DNA of 64,000 nt from NCBI GenBank assembly GCA_963934255.1, contig CAWVXU010000005.1, forward strand, positions 2,570 through 66,569, written 5' to 3'. Made by a program: the position numbers and the translations under genes. This document shows, piece by piece, positions 11,206 through 21,332 of the stretch. Each line of letters starts with the position of its first letter. Within the stretch, counting starts at the first letter, position 1. The notes under the pieces were generated by a model that saw only the letters and a program-made list of their open reading frames with translations, had not been told where the DNA came from and made no database searches. Source of the DNA: an uncultured Fibrobacterales bacterium. Its GTDB lineage: Bacteria > Fibrobacterota > Fibrobacteria > Fibrobacterales > CAWVXU01.

Positions 11206-14148
11206 ATGATGGTACGATTAAAACGGAAACATAAGACTCATTTTTTGGCATTTATGTGTTTGATACTAGGTCTTAGCCTGGGAGTCTCTCATGCAAATAA
11301 CCCTTGGGATGGACTCGGCTCTTTTGATGATTCAGAAGTGGGCACAACTATATTCCCTATCCTTAAGCGTAACCCTGATGCACGTGGTATCGCCTTAGGT
11401 GGTAATTTGGGTGCCATGGAAAATGGACCCATGACAATGTGGTGGAACCCTGCTGGTCTAGCTGAAATCAACGGCTATTGGACAAACTTTAATCATGCCT
11501 CGGTCTATGGTGAGTTTAATCAAGATGTGATAACTACGACAATCCCCTGGGGCAAAGGCCGCACCGTTGCTTTTTTGACAAATGGACTTTGGACAGGAGA
11601 TATTGAAAACGGCCGTGATATTAATGAAGATAGCTACGCCTATAGTTCAACTGAATTTATGGTTGGCGCCGCTTTAGGTTATGAGGTTGTGCCGAAAGTT
11701 TTTTCTCTAGGTGCGAGTTTATATTATTTAAACGCACTACTTGATGATGTTAATACGATGGGCTTCTCTGCAGATGTTGGATTAAAATGGAATTTAAGGT
11801 GGGAATTGGTCAATTCACTTTCTTTACATAATATATCAGCCGGAGCCAAAAGTAATCGCCCCGGTGCACGGTTACGTGAGAAGTTTCCTATGATGATTCG
11901 TTGGAGTGTAGGTAAGCCAATGGGCCCTAATATTGTGGATCTATATGGCTGGAACTTGGGTCTAACTAAATCTAATGATGGAATGTTTAGCGGACATGTA
12001 GGTTTCGAACAAAAAATCCAAAACATGCTATATGTTCGAGCCGGTAAAGAATATTCTTTCAATGATCAAGAAGCTGGATATTTTAGAGGACTTTCCGGAG
12101 GACTAGGCTTGCAAGTGAGTACACTTCGTTTTGATTACGGAACAAAGTACCATGGGTTTCTTGGCTTTGAGCATCTCTTAGGTGTAAAGTTTGCCTTATT
12201 TGAAAGACCTACGCGTGAGCGCTTGCCGCTCATTGATCAAGCTCGTGCTTGGTATGCTGAAGGAGATTGTGATAAAGCAGCGATGTTAGCTCAAGCCTTA
12301 ATTGAGAAAAACCCCAACTCCATAGAAGCGACTTCAATTCTTCAACACTGTCGCATACAAGCCAAGGTCGAAGATAAAGATTATATCGCAATTATTTATT
12401 CGGGTTTAATCAAGGGCCAACTATTTGATCATCAGCGAGGCGATGTTTTAATTGGTGGTTTCTCTCGTCGAATGAAAGCATTGAATAATCTCAAAAAAAG
12501 ATACCCGATAAACTTAAGTATAGATGTGGGGCGTTTTGCTGCCCCAGTGAGAAATTTTGAACGAGATTCACTTTTGATGGGTGGACTTAATATGTTAAAT
12601 TTTGATGCTATACTTTGGGATCCGAGTGTGTCTCAGCAAAAAAGTTATGTCAATGGGCAAGAAGTCACTAACCCATTTCATCCGATGAAATTAGCTTGGA
12701 TTGGAGAGGATAATAAAACCCCTTCAAGTAGAGTAATCAATGCCGATGGACGTTTAGTATTTGTGATGGGTGTGAATGACTCAACTTTCACAGCAACAAA
12801 GGCACAAGAGTTATTTGAAACTGAGCTCAAGGCAATGAAAAAGAAACATCATGTTGACGAGTTTGCTTTGACAGTCTTTGTGTGGAATGTAGACGCTAGA
12901 AAAGCCAGAAAACTTCTTGAGTCAGGTTTTGATGCAGATCTCGTAATATGTGCTCAAGGGATGGCTCAATCAGAGTCAGTAGGCAAAGGGGTTTTAGCTT
13001 CAGCATCGATTGGAGAGCTTGGATTGTTTAGATTCTATTTTGATGGAAGTGATCTTTTAAATTACGATCATCAAATGGTTCAACTAAATTCTGGTGTCAA
13101 GCCAGATTCTCAAATGAAACAATTCTTACAGGATTCAATTCGGGCCCCGGAAGATGTACTAAACAAGTGGACTCCTCGTGATGAATCTCATTTCTTATTC
13201 TTGCATAGTGATGAGCTCCAGCCAGAAGATAAGCCTCAGTTATTTGATCTTTATATTAAAGATCAAATAAAGAATTTTGATTATAGAGTAAATCATCATC
13301 CACAACAATATGTATCAGCGGAACTGTCAGTCTCTCGTGGACGAATTGCTTTTGTGGAGTCGGTAGAGAACACGAAAGTTCTTTCTATTCAAAATACGAT
13401 TGATAAGCGTTCACAATCTATTAGTCCTGATGATGTTATTGTTGAGCAAGTCCGCTTTGATCCTTTTGAAAATTGGATTTTTTATCGATTTACTAATTCT
13501 AAAGGTCTTCAAGGTTTAAATCGAGTTCGCCCAAGTGGATTAGAATCAACGCTTTTTTTACAAGAAGAATGGGGCAAGTTTAACGACTTCATATTTAGTT
13601 CGGATGCTAGATTTATGGCGACTCATTGGACATCTTCTGATGACTCATGGGTCGAACATTGGTCTTTACGATCTAAGGCTCATCTAAGAGTTAACCCTCA
13701 AGACCAATACGCTCACACGCCTGTTTATTCACCTAATGGTCTTTACTTGGCTTATCTAGGTGAGTCCAAGCAAGAAGACCCTATGCTTCGTGGCGCTGAT
13801 ATAATTTTGTTTGATGTGAATTTAGGCGATACTTTACAATTAACTGATGGTGCACGAGTGAAATCAATGACATGGTCTAAAGACGGTGCTTATTTACTTT
13901 ATAGTTCTGGTGATGAAATTCAAGATTTGAATTTGATTCACATCTCAACTCAGACATCTAAAAAACTTATTAAACAGACTGGATTTTCTAGTGAAGAAAA
14001 CCCTCAAGCATATAGTCTCAAAGATAAAGATGGGTTTCTTTATGAAAGAGTATTTGAAGGTGAACGACACATTTATTGGGTCTCAATTGATGGTCAAATC
14101 AACACTCCATTAGTCGAACTTAAAGGCCAAAATTATTTACCAAAATAG
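11206..14148 (+). CDS. Multidomain protein: PorV/PorQ-family barrel + TPR + degenerate 5'-nucleotidase/metallophosphatase-like domain + TolB/PD40 beta-propeller
   Basis: ARGIALGG...WWNPAGLA (PorV/PorQ signature); barrel ends near LGVKF; TPR-like ARAWYAEG..NPNSIEA; IAIIYSGLIKGQL..GGFSRR..SIDVG; PVYSPNG and WSKDG repeats. Confidence 0.7.
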   Translation: MMVRLKRKHKTHFLAFMCLILGLSLGVSHANNPWDGLGSFDDSEVGTTIFPILKRNPDARGIALGGNLGAMENGPMTMWWNPAGLAEINGYWTNFNHASVYGEFNQDVITTTIPWGKGRTVAFLTNGLWTGDIENGRDINEDSYAYSSTEFMVGAALGYEVVPKVFSLGASLYYLNALLDDVNTMGFSADVGLKWNLRWELVNSLSLHNISAGAKSNRPGARLREKFPMMIRWSVGKPMGPNIVDLYGWNLGLTKSNDGMFSGHVGFEQKIQNMLYVRAGKEYSFNDQEAGYFRGLSGGLGLQVSTLRFDYGTKYHGFLGFEHLLGVKFALFERPTRERLPLIDQARAWYAEGDCDKAAMLAQALIEKNPNSIEATSILQHCRIQAKVEDKDYIAIIYSGLIKGQLFDHQRGDVLIGGFSRRMKALNNLKKRYPINLSIDVGRFAAPVRNFERDSLLMGGLNMLNFDAILWDPSVSQQKSYVNGQEVTNPFHPMKLAWIGEDNKTPSSRVINADGRLVFVMGVNDSTFTATKAQELFETELKAMKKKHHVDEFALTVFVWNVDARKARKLLESGFDADLVICAQGMAQSESVGKGVLASASIGELGLFRFYFDGSDLLNYDHQMVQLNSGVKPDSQMKQFLQDSIRAPEDVLNKWTPRDESHFLFLHSDELQPEDKPQLFDLYIKDQIKNFDYRVNHHPQQYVSAELSVSRGRIAFVESVENTKVLSIQNTIDKRSQSISPDDVIVEQVRFDPFENWIFYRFTNSKGLQGLNRVRPSGLESTLFLQEEWGKFNDFIFSSDARFMATHWTSSDDSWVEHWSLRSKAHLRVNPQDQYAHTPVYSPNGLYLAYLGESKQEDPMLRGADIILFDVNLGDTLQLTDGARVKSMTWSKDGAYLLYSSGDEIQDLNLIHISTQTSKKLIKQTGFSSEENPQAYSLKDKDGFLYERVFEGERHIYWVSIDGQINTPLVELKGQNYLPK

Positions 14149-14295
14149 ATGAAATAACCTCACTGTAATAACCTCATCAAAATAAATTTACAGAGAGTTC
14201 AATTTTTTTCTTGACTTTGGCTTGTAAAAAATTCAATATATATAGAGAGACGTTTGTAAACCTCAACTTCGTGAACGGGAGGCATCGGCGCACAA

Positions 14296-14585
14296 TGGAT
14301 AATAATTTAATTTTGAATGGTGTATTAGCTATTATAGTTTTGGGCCTCATTCTTATACATTTATCCTTGCGCAAAAGCATTGCAAAAGACGCCCGTGAAG
14401 TTGTAGGGCATTTACATAATCTCTACATAGAGAGAGAGAGAGATGGCGAGTTAATTATTCAAGATTCCAGTGAGGCAGAGTCCACAGGAGCCACTGACCG
14501 TTATGGTCAAATAAATCAAACTCAACCAATCCTCCACCTCCAACTACATAGGGAGAAGGCTCAAAAGCGAAAGGCTTCCAAATAA
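14296..14585 (+). CDS. Small single-pass membrane hypothetical protein
   Basis: ATG at about 14296 inside the supplied ORF; N-terminal TM helix, basic C-terminus; followed by a terminator. Confidence 0.55.
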
Positions 14586-14623
14586 AGGACGGGTGCCATA
14601 GTTCAAGAATCTTTTTCCAAAAA

Positions 14624-14657
14624 AAAGAGAAGACGCTTCCAAAGCGTCTTTCTTTGT
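14624..14657 (+). terminator. Intrinsic terminator (possibly bidirectional)
   Basis: aagagaagacgctt-cca-aagcgtctttctt hairpin flanked by A- and T-runs. Confidence 0.75.
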
Positions 14658-14729
14658 ATTTATTGCGTTATAGAAGAAACCTTTATCGCAGAGTTTTATT
14701 CACTCGCGCATGCTTTTAGCTAAATTTGT

Positions 14730-16487
14730 TTGATGGAAATAAAATTACTTCAACATTATCAATTCAACCTTTCAAATGAAACTTTGATTGAAAATTTTAG
14801 CTATTCAAAGTTAGAGCAAATACGGGCTAACAGTTATAGTCAGCTGAAGTTAAAAACTGAGTATCTACTTCAAAGACAACTGATTCGAGGCGCATTATTT
14901 AAAGAATATCAAAGACGTAACATTTCAAATACGTCCTTTCTATCACAACCCTCAGACATTGTGATTGATTACAATTCTAAAGGAAAGCCATTTCTAAAAG
15001 ATCGTGCTTTTCATTTCTCGATATCTCATAGTCGTAAATTATTAATTATTGTTTGTAGTCATGAACCTATTGGTGTTGATATAGAGTTTCATCAAACTCG
15101 AGATGTAAACAGATTAGCAAGTCGTTTTTTCCATGAAGACGAATTTAACCTTTTATTGGCAATGGGAAAAGAAAGTTCTCAATCAAATACAACACAAATT
15201 GAAACCTTTTATCAGATGTGGACTTTTAAAGAAGCATGGCTTAAATGCCGAGGTTCAACCTTGTTGAATTTTTTGAGTCAATCAACTTTGAAACATTTAA
15301 ATCTTCAAGGAAATGTGAGGTCAGAAAGTACTTCATCAATAAATAATTTAAGTTTTGAAATGAGTGATACTTCCATAGATTCAATGGGGCATATCAATAG
15401 TGCTTATTCTGAACTATTAATTGATGAGGAGTCTTACCATATACACATTGTTGTAAACTCAACTCCGATTTACGAAAAATTTCCAAAACTACAAGCCAAT
15501 AGACCTAAAGTATCAATCATTGAATCTTTCACACCAGTGCGTGAACTTTTAAATGAACATTTAAGAATATCAAAATCACATACATCCCCACCAAAGTCAC
15601 TTTGGCTGAAAGATGATTCTAAAACTCACCCTGAATTTGGTGGTAACAAAATTCGAAAATTTGAATTTCTTATGGGTTGTGCCTTGCAAGAGGTTCAATT
15701 AGGAAAACGTGCAAAATTTGATCATATGGTGAGTATTGGCTTTGAAGGTTCAAACCATTGTGTAGCAACATCTCTTATTGCTAGAGAATTTGGTTTGAAT
15801 TGTTCTGTCTTTTTAAAAAGACAGATGGACGCTTCTTATGTTCAAGAAAACCTGAACTGGCACAAAAAATTAAAAACGAATATTTGGACTGATAAAGATA
15901 TACCACTTGAGAAGCCATTTCCCAGTTTAGAAGATTTATACCATTTGGTAGAGGATGATTCAAAAGTATTCTGGGTTTCGCCAGGAGGTACTCATCCTGT
16001 TTCTCATTGGGGATATACCAATGCTGCATTTGAACTCAAATCACAGATTGACCAACGTCTTGTTGTGGAACCAGACCTCTTATATATTGCCTGTGGCACA
16101 ACAGGTTCAGCAGTTGGTTTAATTGCAGGACTCAAACTTGCAGGACTCAAAACAAAAGTCATTGCAGTTCAAGTAGTTCCTGATTTTATCGTCAACCAAA
16201 AATCTTTGATGAAACAACTTCAAAAATTTAATGAGGAGTTAGAGCTTATAGGAGAGCGACCTCTAGTGTGGAGTGGCAATGAGTTTGTAATTCATAGAGG
16301 AGCTTTGGGTGAAGGCTATGCAATACCGACAATAAGGTCCGAATCTCTTGTGACTGAACTTTATTTAAGTGAAAAGCTTCATTTAGATTGGACTTATACT
16401 GCCAAAGTGTGGGATGCAATTTGGCAAGATTCAAATAAAGGGAAATTGAGCGGTTTAGATATAATGTATTGGAATACCTACCATTGA
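14730..16487 (+). CDS. Fusion: Sfp-type 4'-phosphopantetheinyl transferase + D-cysteine desulfhydrase/ACC deaminase-family PLP enzyme
   Basis: N-half: GKP, FSISHS, IGVDIE, WTFKEAWLK. C-half: TP..LWLKDD..GGNKIRKFE (PLP Lys), SNH, ACGTTGS, LDWTYTAK. Confidence 0.85.
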   Translation: MMEIKLLQHYQFNLSNETLIENFSYSKLEQIRANSYSQLKLKTEYLLQRQLIRGALFKEYQRRNISNTSFLSQPSDIVIDYNSKGKPFLKDRAFHFSISHSRKLLIIVCSHEPIGVDIEFHQTRDVNRLASRFFHEDEFNLLLAMGKESSQSNTTQIETFYQMWTFKEAWLKCRGSTLLNFLSQSTLKHLNLQGNVRSESTSSINNLSFEMSDTSIDSMGHINSAYSELLIDEESYHIHIVVNSTPIYEKFPKLQANRPKVSIIESFTPVRELLNEHLRISKSHTSPPKSLWLKDDSKTHPEFGGNKIRKFEFLMGCALQEVQLGKRAKFDHMVSIGFEGSNHCVATSLIAREFGLNCSVFLKRQMDASYVQENLNWHKKLKTNIWTDKDIPLEKPFPSLEDLYHLVEDDSKVFWVSPGGTHPVSHWGYTNAAFELKSQIDQRLVVEPDLLYIACGTTGSAVGLIAGLKLAGLKTKVIAVQVVPDFIVNQKSLMKQLQKFNEELELIGERPLVWSGNEFVIHRGALGEGYAIPTIRSESLVTELYLSEKLHLDWTYTAKVWDAIWQDSNKGKLSGLDIMYWNTYH

Positions 16488-16510
16488 TAGGTTAAAAATA
16501 TCAAAAAGTA

Positions 16511-16945
16511 TTAGGTTTCACCCGTGACAAAATTCTCAATGACCCGAAAACTTGGAATCACGTCGTAATTTTCTCCACCACGATAGTTTTCCACAAATTC
16601 CTTAGCAGCCTTGCGAAGTTCAATTTCAAGTTCTGCTATGTTAGTCTTAAATGAAGCTTCACCCATTTCGATTAAAACCATCGGACCTGCGAGGTGTATT
16701 TTGACAGAAGTACGGTCTTCAGCGAAATCTATCCAAGTTTCGCTATTTCCATCACCTAAAAGGCCTAAAGCCTTCTTTTTGCCTTGATTTAGTCCATCAA
16801 TGAGCTGCATAAGCCAATAATCGACCAAAAGATAGTCAGTTCTTGCTTCACTTTCGCCTTGGCGAACGACAATCATGCCACCTGCATCCTGAGGATTGAG
16901 GCGACAAGAGTCATCTATTAATATTTGAATTTGAATACGTGCCAT
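16511..16945 (-). CDS. Hypothetical protein
   Basis: 144-aa ORF filling the gap with a natural composition; no recognised motif. Confidence 0.6.
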   Translation of the reverse strand: MARIQIQILIDDSCRLNPQDAGGMIVVRQGESEARTDYLLVDYWLMQLIDGLNQGKKKALGLLGDGNSETWIDFAEDRTSVKIHLAGPMVLIEMGEASFKTNIAELEIELRKAAKEFVENYRGGENYDVIPSFRVIENFVTGET

Positions 16946-17326: not shown

Positions 17327-18619
17327 TTGAAGGAGCCTTCCGTGGAACAACTCACACTAGACCCTATTACAAAAGTAGATGGTACAATCACCATTCCTGG
17401 ATCGAAGTCACTTTCCAATCGAATTCTATTACTGGCAGCATTAGCTGAAGGTAAGACTAAGATTTCTAATCTACTTGATTCTGATGATATCAGTCATATG
17501 CTCAATGCGTTAAAGCTATTGGGGGTAAAATGGGAAAGAACAGGTGAATCCGAAGTTGTTGTTGTTGGTTGTGCTGGCCCTTTACCTGCTCGAGATAAAG
17601 TTGAACTTTTCTTGGGTAATGCAGGAACCGCAATGAGACCTCTTACGGCAGCGCTTTGTGTGGGAGCCGGTCAAGTCATATTAACAGGTGAGCCTAGAAT
17701 GTATGAGCGTCCTATAGGTGATCTGATTGATGCACTTCGTCCACTTGGTGCAGACATTGAGTATCTTAAAGATGAAAACTATCCTCCACTCAAAATTAAT
17801 GCTGGGGCTTTAAAAGGTGGCAAAGTTTCTATTCGCGGAAATATCTCTTCGCAATTTTTAACTGCACTTCTAATGACTGCTCCACTTCTCTCATCACCTC
17901 TTGAGATTGTCGTTGAAGGCGAGCTTGTCTCCAAGCCATATATTGATATTACTCTTGATGTGATGTCTAAGTTTGGAGTAGAAGTTGAGAACGATAACTA
18001 TCAGAGTTTTAAAGTAAGTCCGGCAACTTATGTATCACCAGGTGTTGCTTTTGTAGAAGGCGATGCGTCAAGCGCGTCCTACTTTTTATCGGCTGCAGCA
18101 ATCTGTGGTGGAACTGTTCGAGTTTATGGTGTAGGCACTGATAGTGTTCAAGGTGATACACAGTATGCGCATGTACTTGAAAAAATGGGAGCCACCGTCA
18201 ATTGGGGACCCAATTTTATTGAAGTTACCAAGGGTGATCTTCAAGGTATAGATGTAGACTGTAATCATATTCCTGATGCGGCGATGACTATTGGGACCAC
18301 AGCTCTCTTTGCTAAAGGCCCTACTGCAATTCGAAATATCTATAACTGGCGTGTCAAAGAAACTGACCGTCTTAGTGCTATGGCTACTGAGCTTCGTAAA
18401 GTGGGGGCAACTGTTGTAGAGGGTGAAGACTTTATCGAGATTATCCCACCAGAGAAAATTTTACATGCAGAAATTGACACATATGACGACCACCGAATTG
18501 CTATGTGTTTTTCACTTGCAGCAATGGGGGCAACTCCAATGACAATTAATGATCCGAAATGTACATCTAAAACATTTCCTACTTATTTTGAAGTTTTAAA
18601 AACTTTAGTGAAAGATTAG
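17327..18619 (+). CDS. aroA: 3-phosphoshikimate 1-carboxyvinyltransferase (EPSP synthase)
   Basis: [38 protein letters not shown]. Confidence 0.97.
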
Positions 18620-18626
18620 GTTTCAT

Positions 18627-21332
18627 TTGAAAACCCAATTAAAATTTGTGCTTATTTTAACCATATTAGTTGGAATCTTTGGATTAACAAATGCTCTTGC
18701 TGAAGAAACGAACACATCTTTAGTTAAGTTGAAGACGCTAGATGCTGTAAAATCAAAAGTAAAATCACAAACTGATAAAACAATAATCCTTGAAAATATC
18801 GAGAAAGAACCACAAGACACTGTCATGTTGAATCACGCACTTGATTCTAGTTTATGGACTTACTTTGACACAAATAAGACTGGTGGAATTATAGGGCTCT
18901 CAGTCTATAGCCATCTTAAAGACTCTCAGTTGATTGATTTTAATGCTGACAGTTTATTTACTCCAGCTTCTACGTTGAAGGTTCTTACGACAGCAACAGC
19001 ACTTGAGGAAATGGATCTTGATTGGCGTCCTATTACAAGAATTCAATTAAGAGGTATACAGACCAAATCCAAACTCGAGGGTGAATTACAGATTATTGGG
19101 GGGGGCGATCCAAATTTCTCTGGACGGTATTTTAAATCAGCGTTTGAAAGTATTGAGCCAATGGTTAAAAAAATTGCTGATCTTGGATTAGATACAATTG
19201 TGGGTGAAATCCTAATAGACGCCTCTTATTTTAAAGATCCTGCTCGACCTACTTCATGGGAAAACAGATTTTATAACAAATGGTATGGAGCTGAAGTGTC
19301 AGGCTTAGCATTCAATGATAATTGTTTTTCAATTAAAGTTTTACCAGGAGAAAACGTGGGTGATAGTGTGGTGCTTGAAATCCTGCCAGATGTTGGCTTT
19401 GTTGATGTAAAGATTGATGTCAAAACAGTTAAGGGTCGGCGAAATCGAATGAAAATGCAACACGACCAAGATTCAAATATAGTCACACTTAGCGGCTCTA
19501 TGGGGGTCCGTGGACAAGCCAAATCCTATGTGCTTCCCATTAGAGATGCACCTGAATACTTTAAGCGTGCGTTTATGAAAGTAATGGCAGATTATAATAT
19601 TTATTTTGAAAAATCAAAACTTCAAAGAAATCAAAAAAAAGAACTCATGATGATTACTTCATTTAATGAAGTAATTGAACATGAAGGGGTCCCATTGCTG
19701 AGTTTGTTAGATGAAATAAATCAAAGATCCCAAAATTTTCACGCTGAAACTTTACTACGCCAAATTGGATACGTCAAGTATAAGGAGGCCTCTATTGCAA
19801 AGGGAGTCCAGGCAGAAAAAGAATTTCTCGCGCGTTTAGGTTTGGCTAAAGACACTGCAAGAATCAAAATAGAAGATGGTAGTGGACTGAGTTATGGAAA
19901 TAAAACCACCCCTAAATTAATGACTACTCTTTTAGATAAAATGTTGAAGCACCCAAGAAAAGAATATTTTATCAGATCTATGGCAGAACCGCGGATTGCT
20001 GTTTCTGGCCAAAGGCTCAAAGAACTCACATATCCTTGGAGTGTGAAGTATAAGTCTGGCTTTGTAAACCAATCTCAAGGTCTTAATGGTTATTTATTTA
20101 CCAGCCAAGGGGACACTCTTTCAATCTCTCTCTATTTTAATAAGTACAAAATATCAGATACAAAAATTGGAAAAATGACGGATAGTATTTGGATTAAGCT
20201 GGCTAATCATTATGACCGAGAAAGACCCTCGATGATTGATGCTAGAAGGCTACATCGTCAAGTAGACATTGTTGGGCTTGGCGGGACAGAGTGGTTAAAC
20301 AGCACCTATCATCAAAGGATTCTTAAGTTTTCAAATTACTTCTTGGATAGGCCATACGGCCATGGGGGGCCAACGGGTGAAGGTATGTATGCTAAGCTTG
20401 AAACAAAGCCCCTCATCAACACCTTAGAGGTAGATTGTGTTACTTACATTGAGAGTGTCATGGCACTTGCATTATCAAAAAAATCGGTGGATATTTTAGG
20501 TGAACTTCAAAAAGTAAGATACTTGAATGGACAGATTGATTACCATAGAAGAAGACATTTCTTTGTGGAAGATTGGGTCTATGGTAATCCAGAAATGATT
20601 AATCTAAAGTCATTTGAAAATGATACTATAGGTATCAGAATATCAAATCGAACTAAGTTTTACGGATATAAGAAAATCAAAATTGAGGTTGAAAACCCTA
20701 AAACCCCATTGAAATATTTACAGCTTGATAGCGCAGTGAAAAAGTTTAAGAAACCTTGGGATGGTAAACCTCAAATTCTTGGTTTTGGCTTAATAGGTAA
20801 GCTTGATTGGTTGTGGGTCACTCACACAGGTTTCTTGATTCTTGAGCCGGGTAAAATGCCAATAATGAGACATGCCAGCCTCCAAAAAAATAAAGTTGTA
20901 GATATGGATTTTTCATTATATCTTAAGTCACGACAAAAATCACTCGATGGTGTAATGTTTTTCGAGTTCATTTCCCCAGGAGATAGTAGTGCAAAAATGA
21001 CTTCGGAAAGAGTCATGGATGAAATTAATAATAAGATGATGATTAACGATTCTCAGATGTTGAAAAATTCTACTACAGCTGATATTGATTCTGTTGTCAA
21101 GAGTGATGTGACTCAATTTGATTCAAATATAAAGATGCAAGTCAAACCTGTATCAAAACTAATTAAAAAAAATAAATCGATGGCAAAAATCAAATCGGAT
21201 TCAATTAGAAAAATGCAATCTGTTAAGTCTACAAGAAGTTTAGAAGCTCAGTTGAAAAATTATTCTGTTAAAAAAGAAAAAGATAAATCTCAACATTTAC
21301 TTAAAATAAACTCAGGTTCAATTTCAAATTGA
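18627..21332 (+). CDS. dacB: PBP4-type D-Ala-D-Ala carboxy/endopeptidase (S13) fused to a DUF1460 (NlpC/P60-like amidase) domain
   Basis: PASTLK (SxxK), GGGDP, SQNFHAE (SxN), DGSGLS, KSG; then GEG..VDCVTYIE..RRHFF..W and VTHTG; Lys-rich tail. Confidence 0.82.
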   Translation: MKTQLKFVLILTILVGIFGLTNALAEETNTSLVKLKTLDAVKSKVKSQTDKTIILENIEKEPQDTVMLNHALDSSLWTYFDTNKTGGIIGLSVYSHLKDSQLIDFNADSLFTPASTLKVLTTATALEEMDLDWRPITRIQLRGIQTKSKLEGELQIIGGGDPNFSGRYFKSAFESIEPMVKKIADLGLDTIVGEILIDASYFKDPARPTSWENRFYNKWYGAEVSGLAFNDNCFSIKVLPGENVGDSVVLEILPDVGFVDVKIDVKTVKGRRNRMKMQHDQDSNIVTLSGSMGVRGQAKSYVLPIRDAPEYFKRAFMKVMADYNIYFEKSKLQRNQKKELMMITSFNEVIEHEGVPLLSLLDEINQRSQNFHAETLLRQIGYVKYKEASIAKGVQAEKEFLARLGLAKDTARIKIEDGSGLSYGNKTTPKLMTTLLDKMLKHPRKEYFIRSMAEPRIAVSGQRLKELTYPWSVKYKSGFVNQSQGLNGYLFTSQGDTLSISLYFNKYKISDTKIGKMTDSIWIKLANHYDRERPSMIDARRLHRQVDIVGLGGTEWLNSTYHQRILKFSNYFLDRPYGHGGPTGEGMYAKLETKPLINTLEVDCVTYIESVMALALSKKSVDILGELQKVRYLNGQIDYHRRRHFFVEDWVYGNPEMINLKSFENDTIGIRISNRTKFYGYKKIKIEVENPKTPLKYLQLDSAVKKFKKPWDGKPQILGFGLIGKLDWLWVTHTGFLILEPGKMPIMRHASLQKNKVVDMDFSLYLKSRQKSLDGVMFFEFISPGDSSAKMTSERVMDEINNKMMINDSQMLKNSTTADIDSVVKSDVTQFDSNIKMQVKPVSKLIKKNKSMAKIKSDSIRKMQSVKSTRSLEAQLKNYSVKKEKDKSQHLLKINSGSISN

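Follow-up and report, generated by a model that had tools for sequence, protein, structure and literature searches.

Sfp of Bacillus subtilis (1QR0, 4MRT), PcpS of Pseudomonas aeruginosa (7BCZ)—which we take to be the sole phosphopantetheinyl transferase (PPTase) of its host—and SPPT of Synechocystis share the group II PPTase fold, an Asp-Glu-Glu triad, a His, and a Lys. On the side of the pyridoxal-phosphate (PLP) enzymes, D-cysteine desulfhydrase (DcyD; EC 4.4.1.15), with structures from Salmonella (4D8T) and Pectobacterium (7YSK), bears a GGNKxRK motif with its lysine, an SNH motif, and a Tyr-Thr pair. Here, we describe a gene that encodes both types of enzyme within one open reading frame (ORF). 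It lies in a window of 64,000 nucleotides, that is, the whole stretch of DNA analyzed, from an uncultured Fibrobacterales bacterium (assembly GCA_963934255.1, contig CAWVXU010000005.1, positions 2,570 to 66,569). Its N-terminal half is an Sfp-type PPTase, which is only ∼20 to 22% identical to Sfp, PcpS, and SPPT, and none of these three carries the 341-residue PLP enzyme that forms the C-terminal half here.

A PPTase covalently tied to another enzyme is likewise found in yeast and fungal type I fatty-acid synthase, whose C-terminal PPT domain (3HMJ, 2WAT) gave weaker fold matches to our protein. There, however, the partner carries the acyl carrier protein (ACP) that is primed and the PPTase is AcpS-like, whereas the present protein joins an Sfp-type PPTase to a PLP enzyme without any carrier domain. 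The original prediction had regarded this pairing as undescribed, and a full-text search found no paper on it, with subscription journals largely outside the coverage of that search. Hence, the architecture appears to be new in the sense of a novel and very rare pairing of two known families, for which no description was found.

The fusion is a genuine single gene and no assembly error. The frame is uninterrupted over its 585 codons from TTG, with zero internal stops, and contains all six motifs that had been quoted for it (Table 1); in addition, both Pfam domains score above their cut-offs—ACPS over residues 113 to 193 with 52.5 bits (cut-off 25) and PALP over residues 283 to 576 with 87.6 bits (cut-off 35). 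Judged by these scores, the motif and Pfam matches lie far beyond chance. The database copies start at the ATG one codon later and count 584 amino acids, and this ATG at 14733 is the probable true start. For the junction between the domains, Logan contigs from four runs were compared with window positions 14600 to 16600. Position 15461/15462, where the two domains meet, is spanned without indels by contigs from two studies, which answers the suggestion to look for an assembly error at this place: contig X1 (36.5 kb, perhaps from the source sample itself) covers the entire compared region with 4 substitutions, and contig X5 (1551 bp, from a different study) covers 14600 to 15813 including the junction with 3 substitutions and zero indels. 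From a third study (X6), the region 14600 to 16600 is covered in pieces, again indel-free. The strain-level substitutions inside the ORF amount to 14, whereof 10 are synonymous and 4 nonsynonymous—two in each half, at unconserved positions.

An exact-sequence look-up retrieved seven distinct full-length variants of 584 amino acids on 16 contigs (NCBI, ENA, Logan, and Tara). Moreover, both Pfam domains are found together in five further clusters at 90% identity (P0003–P0007), whose proteins measure 542 to 647 amino acids and show 37 to 43% identity at 96 to 99% coverage. It is thus extremely improbable that an assembly or sequencing error joined two adjacent genes. Such an error might be read from one RNA-library contig (depth 3.4), in which one base is inserted at 15124, and from the database fragment P0124 of 149 amino acids, whose first ∼110 residues are 93% identical and whose remainder is unrelated. 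Yet, the insertion was seen in just one contig of low depth and well away from the junction, and the break in P0124 coincides with a 19-nucleotide word (15036–15054) common to a different, more abundant X1 contig. A small chimeric contig, rather than a split gene, is the probable source of P0124.

The PPTase half matches B. subtilis Sfp (1QR0) by sequence with an E value of 9.5e-13. The magnesium-binding triad Asp-Glu-Glu (D117, E119, and E168), the catalytic His (H100), and the Lys (K172) are all present; the triad classes of PPTases are laid out in PMC4103896. Among the six fused proteins—that of the window and those of the five clusters—H100, S101, D117, E119, E168, and K172 are invariant. 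Over a wider alignment of 32 PPTases, D117, W164, K167, E168, and K172 are invariant, and H100 and E119 are at least 90% conserved. An AlphaFold2 (AF2) prediction of this half from the 32-row alignment reached a predicted local distance difference test (pLDDT) value of 81 and a predicted template-modeling score (pTM) of 0.81, with strands and helices spanning residues 8 to 243. In this model, the β-strands 220 to 231 and 234 to 243 close the PPTase domain, and the loop 193 to 219 is floppy. Foldseek places the half next to Sfp (4MRT, TMt 0.73 over 248 columns), human AASDHPPT (2CG5), and PcpS (TMt 0.60). Entries of AcpS cover only ∼140 columns of it, which assigns the domain to the two-lobed type of ∼230 amino acids and not to the AcpS type of 120 amino acids.

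On a finer level, the domain stays apart from the named families. Its NCBIfam scores fall below the equivalog cut-offs of HetI (66.8 versus 370), AcpT (47.9 versus 174), AusB (42.2 versus 225), and EntD (12.6 versus 169). Among the fused homologues, the PPTase halves are 30 to 35% identical and thereby less conserved than the PLP halves (46–52%). A word-indexed search returned no close stand-alone relative of the PPTase half—the best reached 38% identity over 45% of the query—and the sole closer entry was the truncated, 93%-identical fragment P0124.

What this PPTase might serve can be approached from the genome of the window (2.67 Mb in 138 contigs, 92% complete), which is the only genome of the fused clade examined. 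A profile search with PF01648 gave one match, namely the fusion ORF. For AcpS, neither the protein of an order-mate (E 0.039) nor TIGR00516 (E 0.3) gave a significant match in this genome. Likewise, PF00550 for PP-binding domains matched once among 13 scored candidates: a 78-residue AcpP encoded after fabD and fabG, besides which no further PP-binding domain was found in the 92%-complete genome. The earlier remark that no polyketide synthase (PKS) or nonribosomal peptide synthetase (NRPS) is adjacent thus holds, and it can be extended by the single carrier protein seen genome-wide. Since the only PPTase meets AcpP as the only carrier, the N-terminal half is most likely the housekeeping holo-ACP synthase, as far as can be inferred from the gene content. 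Some Sfp-type enzymes also prime the ACPs of fatty-acid synthesis, and attempts to delete SPPT of Synechocystis failed, as stated in PMC5605751. In its likeness to SPPT, the PPTase half would also appear to be an indispensable PPTase for a fatty-acid ACP.

PF01648 was matched in 39 of the 40 other genomes of the relatives search, mostly once and in a frame of ∼180 to 310 amino acids. In the largest sister family, all 35 genomes have a match and 33 of them a single one, again in frames of ∼180 to 310 amino acids. One genome (G005) shows a 639-residue frame around a weak PPTase match, which proved to be a high-GC read-through beside a membrane-protein gene and not a PLP fusion. Three order-mates (G002, G004, and G007) encode PPTases of AcpS size (126–132 amino acids). 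Together with the incompleteness of the genome, these small enzymes would allow for a different assignment, in which the PPTase half serves a specialized carrier of secondary-metabolite or lipid synthesis and a housekeeping AcpS sits in the unassembled part of the genome. However, three different queries did not find AcpS, no second PP-binding protein for such a specialized role was found in the genome, and the sister family as a rule manages with one PPTase of the larger size, making this assignment highly improbable.

The PLP half is a fold-type-II enzyme of the superfamily of 1-aminocyclopropane-1-carboxylate (ACC) deaminase and DcyD. The AF2 model has pLDDT values mostly above 90 here. By structure, Foldseek ranks DcyD of Salmonella first (4D8T, TMt 0.85), followed by DcyD of Pectobacterium (0.81–0.83), PH0054 of Pyrococcus horikoshii (1J0A, 0.80), and ACC deaminases (0.78–0.81). 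By sequence, PH0054 is the closest among solved structures (E 8.7e-17 over residues 8–329 of the PLP half), ahead of DcyD (∼3e-13) and ACC deaminase (2e-6); it is a stand-alone archaeal protein of 24% identity that to our knowledge lacks ACC deaminase activity. A search of the ESM Atlas gave one PALP cluster by structure and no usable feature match. Among the six fused proteins, K307, S341-N342-H343, G419-G420-T421, C455-G456-T457, G459, Y556-T557, and K559 are invariant, and the residues that are invariant across the PLP relatives as a family include K307, N342, Y530, Y556, and K559. The glycine-rich loop CGTTGS is, by homology to the family, presumably the phosphate-binding loop. Since none of the catalytic motifs varies among the fused proteins in either half, the expectation of two intact domains appears to be confirmed.

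Whether the PLP half is of the D-cysteine-desulfhydrase type, as had been proposed, can be affirmed only in part. The residue that follows the active-site Tyr distinguishes the two families, being Thr in DcyD and Glu in ACC deaminase, and T557 after Y556 represents the DcyD-like state; together with the fold, which is nearest to Salmonella DcyD, this part of the proposal stands. On the contrary, every curated DcyD model fails—TIGR01275 (114.3 versus 289.4), NF003029 (58.1 versus 610), NF003032 (57.7 versus 469), and NF003030 (51.8 versus 429)—and the identity to DcyD is only 21 to 23%. The PLP half belongs to a separate subfamily of ∼360 amino acids ending in FWNTY, and therein to a subclade with its own sequence blocks. 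The ACC deaminase models TIGR01274 (45 versus 392) and PRK14045 (74.8 versus 550) fail as well, in line with Thr instead of Glu at position 557, and so do those of the cysteate sulfo-lyase CuyA (98.8 versus 450) and the coenzyme M enzyme XcbE (86.7 versus 450). Most likely, the PLP half would catalyze β-elimination or deamination on a small free amino acid such as D-Cys, D-Ser, or a β-substituted alanine. A role of the lyase as a needed sulfide source was considered and dismissed: the genome has two genes of the 3′-phosphoadenosine-5′-phosphosulfate (PAPS) reductase family and four other PALP enzymes, and there is no sign of such a dependence.

The two domains follow each other directly. In the AF2 model, the last PPTase strand passes straight into the PLP domain, whose start is near residue 245, and no free linker is left; the stretch around 15300 to 15500, which had been taken for a linker, is mostly PPTase domain. 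For the full-length prediction, the alignment consisted of the fused proteins and PLP relatives—that of the N-terminal half alone consisted of PPTases—and it yielded a pTM of 0.65 with a PPTase half of low confidence, there being six alignment rows in that part. A complex prediction with the halves as separate chains scored 0.00 in both runs, which is evidence neither for nor against a contact.

The fused form is rare. Among the best 150 matches of an exhaustive HMMER search through 1.84 billion representatives, three other full-length fused representatives were found (P0003, P0005, and P0007). None was found in 185,579 species genomes, where all 20 loci contained a PPTase only, nor in 296 genomes of the phylum besides that of the window. 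The best 80 of 521 metagenome relatives include none either; fused forms may lie beyond those 80. PPTase and PLP genes side by side, as the proposed chance fusion of neighbors would have had them, were seen in no sampled relative, and the separate-gene form is represented solely by the stand-alone PLP protein P0122. This protein of 335 amino acids is the closest PLP relative (51% identity) and starts exactly at the domain boundary of the fusion. It shares the blocks FPSLEDL, GG(T/S)HPxSHW, and GSNHC with the fused clade; FPSLEDL is found in none of the other 23 of the first 30 alignment rows listed and is thereby specific to the fused clade and P0122.

In a tree of 27 rows under LG+C20, with which a quick tree of 95 rows agrees, the PLP halves of the six fused proteins group together in a clade of weak support (80/46). 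P0122 is sister to this clade (99/99), both sitting on a long stem of 0.81 changes per column, and P0008 comes next (100/99). Starred branches set this group off from the stand-alone clade of Fibrobacterota. The simplest history would comprise one fusion event after the split from the lineage of P0122. The PLP gene that was fused is not the vertical counterpart of the copy usual in this phylum. In Fibrobacterota, 38 other genomes encode a stand-alone member of the PLP subfamily, with 33 of 46 in one family, whereas the order of the window has it in none of 156 further genomes. The fused lineage is small, poorly sampled, and marine, with one placeable member in Fibrobacterota.

The PLP half belongs to a divergent subclade of a widespread and uncharacterized stand-alone subfamily of ∼360 amino acids. 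Its relatives measure ∼330 to 430 amino acids, occur in many phyla (174 representative clusters at E ≤ 1e-30), and include loci from Nostoc, Dehalococcoidia, Desulfobacterales, Gammaproteobacteria, Kiritimatiellota, and Chitinispirillaceae. Across the loci of 80 stand-alone PLP genes, no conserved neighborhood was found; the commonest neighbors are a cluster of response regulators and histidine kinases (14 of 80), a glucose–methanol–choline (GMC) oxidoreductase (8), and an amino-acid permease (6). The subfamily also contains other fusions: radical SAM with PALP (P0145, 745 amino acids), PALP with an AhpC/TSA peroxiredoxin (P0171, 570), a double PALP (P0123, 761), and a periplasmic-binding domain with PALP (P0191, 508). 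Of these, the peroxiredoxin fusion hints at a thiol or sulfide chemistry.

Our preferred reading, to which we assign a probability of roughly 0.6, is that of a bifunctional protein with two independent activities. The N-terminal half would transfer 4′-phosphopantetheine from coenzyme A (CoA) to AcpP for fatty-acid synthesis, and the PLP half would act separately on a small free amino acid, the two activities being chemically independent. The fusion might have arisen in a single event in a small marine lineage and might persist because it ensures the joint expression of two enzymes that are needed constitutively and because its reversal is difficult. The surroundings of the relatives fit in with this: among 205 loci, a PLP relative is present in 151 and a PPTase relative in 38, and both are present only in the window's own 3, which leaves none of the 148 other loci of PLP relatives with a PPTase relative nearby.

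Several points weigh against two independent activities or against the assignments within that reading. The fusion was retained through ∼55 to 65% divergence without a spacer, which also fits a functional link, and the full-length AF2 model does not reliably show the relative placement of the domains. The PLP half scores below every curated family cut-off, which makes its substrate a guess; the fused clade and P0122 sit on a long stem with blocks of their own, and their specificity may hence differ from that of the rest of the subfamily. In addition, the finding of a sole PPTase comes from one genome of the fused clade, and a second PPTase could sit in the missing part of its 138-contig assembly.

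A functional coupling of the halves is unlikely in our estimation. The PLP domain would then act on a thiol- or carrier-linked substrate—for example a cysteine conjugate or mixed disulfide of CoA or of the phosphopantetheine (Ppant) arm, or an aminoacyl-S-ACP—or it would clear a sulfur amino acid that disturbs CoA metabolism or ACP priming. The retention of the fusion in six clusters without a linker speaks for this, as do the long stem of the PLP subclade with its own conserved blocks, the C–S chemistry of its relatives (the best NCBIfam matches being the DcyD family, CuyA, and XcbE), and the thiol peroxidase domain to which P0171, another member of the subfamily, is fused. However, AcpP is the only carrier protein found, the sister P0122 has the clade-specific blocks and yet stands alone, and we know of no member of the PLP family that uses a carrier-bound substrate. 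The single carrier, the stand-alone sister, and the lack of co-occurrence in the loci together provide no support for carrier-bound chemistry, and the idea of an elimination on carrier-bound Cys or Ser or of a Ppant repair, raised when the gene was first noticed, is likewise unsupported. As a special form of such chemistry, the fusion might mark a biochemical link between ACP priming and the chemistry of sulfur amino acids. In this subclade, the PLP half would then be a C–S lyase specialized for CoA, pantetheine, or the AcpP Ppant arm in the form of a cysteine conjugate or mixed disulfide, and would work beside the PPTase as a repair or quality-control module for the only carrier protein of the cell; we consider this very unlikely, and if true, it would add a new enzymatic function to the DcyD superfamily.

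Enzymes of the DcyD family form dimers, and PPTases of the Sfp type are monomeric. Maybe, the PLP domain mainly serves the PPTase, either as a dimerization scaffold or as a regulator of holo-ACP formation that senses amino acids or PLP, and would act as a metabolic lyase only secondarily. A dimeric DcyD-type partner would indeed make the PPTase dimeric, and the PPTase half is the one that appears essential and is less conserved. On the other side, the invariance of K307, S341-N342-H343, the glycine-rich loop, and Y556-T557 suggests that catalysis has been kept, P0122 represents this subclade as a stand-alone enzyme, and the order-mates searched have stand-alone PPTase-sized frames with no such PLP domain. 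A mere service to the PPTase is thus quite unlikely, and the bifunctional protein with two independent activities remains our preferred reading.

Table 1. Features of the PPTase–PLP fusion gene and its upstream border (positions in the window; residues counted from the TTG)
Feature	Residues	Position	Strand	Basis or remark
Whole fused ORF	1–585	14730–16487	+	TTG 14730, ATG 14733, stop TGA 16485–16487
Sfp-type (group II) PPTase domain, complete two-lobed fold	1–243	14730–15458	+	Pfam ACPS, Sfp match, AF2, Foldseek
FSISHS motif (H100)	96–101	15015–15032	+	opposite FNISHS of Sfp
IGVDIE motif (Mg-binding D117, E119)	114–119	15069–15086	+	opposite IGIDIE of Sfp
WTFKEAWLK motif (E168, K172)	164–172	15219–15245	+	opposite WSMKESFIK of Sfp
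Variable low-confidence internal loop	193–219	15306–15386	+	pLDDT <50; indel-rich among fused homologues
Fold-type-II PLP enzyme, ACC-deaminase/DcyD superfamily	245–585	15462–16484	+	Pfam PALP, AF2, Foldseek
GGNKIRK, Schiff-base lysine K307	304–310	15639–15659	+	N306, K307, R309, K310 invariant in 62 family members
SNH (S341 N342 H343)	341–343	15750–15758	+	N342 invariant; S341, H343 at least 90% conserved
FPSLEDL block		15918–15938	+	invariant in the six fused proteins; present in P0122
CGTTGS glycine-rich loop	455–460	16092–16109	+	G456, G459 conserved across the family; opposite AAGSGGT of PH0054
LDWTYTAK (Y556-T557, K559)	552–559	16383–16406	+	Y556, K559 invariant, T557 at least 90% conserved (62 sequences)
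Terminator-like hairpin, 10 pairs flanked by A-/T-runs		14629–14651	both	80 nucleotides upstream of the fusion gene

The hairpin listed in Table 1 divides the fusion gene from the upstream unit, and the downstream neighbor (16511–16945, 144 amino acids) is convergent to it; hence, the fusion gene looks monocistronic from the layout of the sequence. A scan for sigma-70 promoters gave 0 sites versus 9.7 expected in shuffles and is uninformative for this phylum. Contigs from a metatranscriptome library (X14) cover 14879 to 15196 and 16098 to 16245, which documents presence only and proves neither that the gene is transcribed nor that it yields one transcript.

The neighbors of the fusion gene are a 980-residue ORF without clear family, Dabb, AroA, a PBP4–AmiA fusion, and PFK, with no PKS or NRPS gene among them. 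The 980-residue ORF (11206–14148, plus strand) has a signal-like N terminus and only a subthreshold match in Pfam, to a β-propeller over residues 808 to 904. Between it and the fusion gene lies an ORF of 124 amino acids (14211–14585, plus strand) with no Pfam match even at E ≤ 10, which may be no gene. Three genes downstream, the 901-residue ORF (18627–21332, plus strand) combines a PBP4-type D-Ala-D-Ala carboxypeptidase (Peptidase_S13, residues 86–508) with an AmiA-like amidase (PF07313, residues 568–770) and is another two-enzyme fusion near the PPTase–PLP gene.

AroA (17327–18619, plus strand) shows 63 to 71% identity to the AroA proteins of the 80 loci listed, which belong mostly to marine Gammaproteobacteria (Marinobacterium, Neptunomonas, and Pseudohongiella); the AroA of a Fibrobacterales metagenome-assembled genome is 71% identical, level with the top of that range. 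By these identities, aroA may have been transferred into or out of the window's lineage. That Fibrobacterales genome has no fused gene near its aroA. In three order-mates, a DUF6941 gene (L002:783–1208, L005:988–1410, and L011:1930–2352) and the stand-alone PPTase gene are arranged tail-to-tail; the convergent 144-residue ORF of the window does not encode DUF6941, and a Pfam search up to E ≤ 10 assigned it to no family.

For the organism, this would mean that its essential ACP-priming enzyme exists only within the fusion. One automatic annotation names a fused homologue after the PLP half only, as "ACC deaminase/D-cysteine desulfhydrase-like." With such a name, the respective genomes seem to have no PPTase, and reconstructions of their metabolism show an apparent gap in fatty-acid synthesis. 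That the domains stayed fused over such divergence is the kind of observation classically taken as a "Rosetta-stone" hint at a functional link; a neutral fusion—a stable joining of unrelated housekeeping enzymes—is the more likely case. If the link is real, the priming of carrier proteins would be tied to amino-acid or sulfur metabolism, and the fusion would open a first way into a large subfamily of PLP enzymes that is so far uncharacterized.

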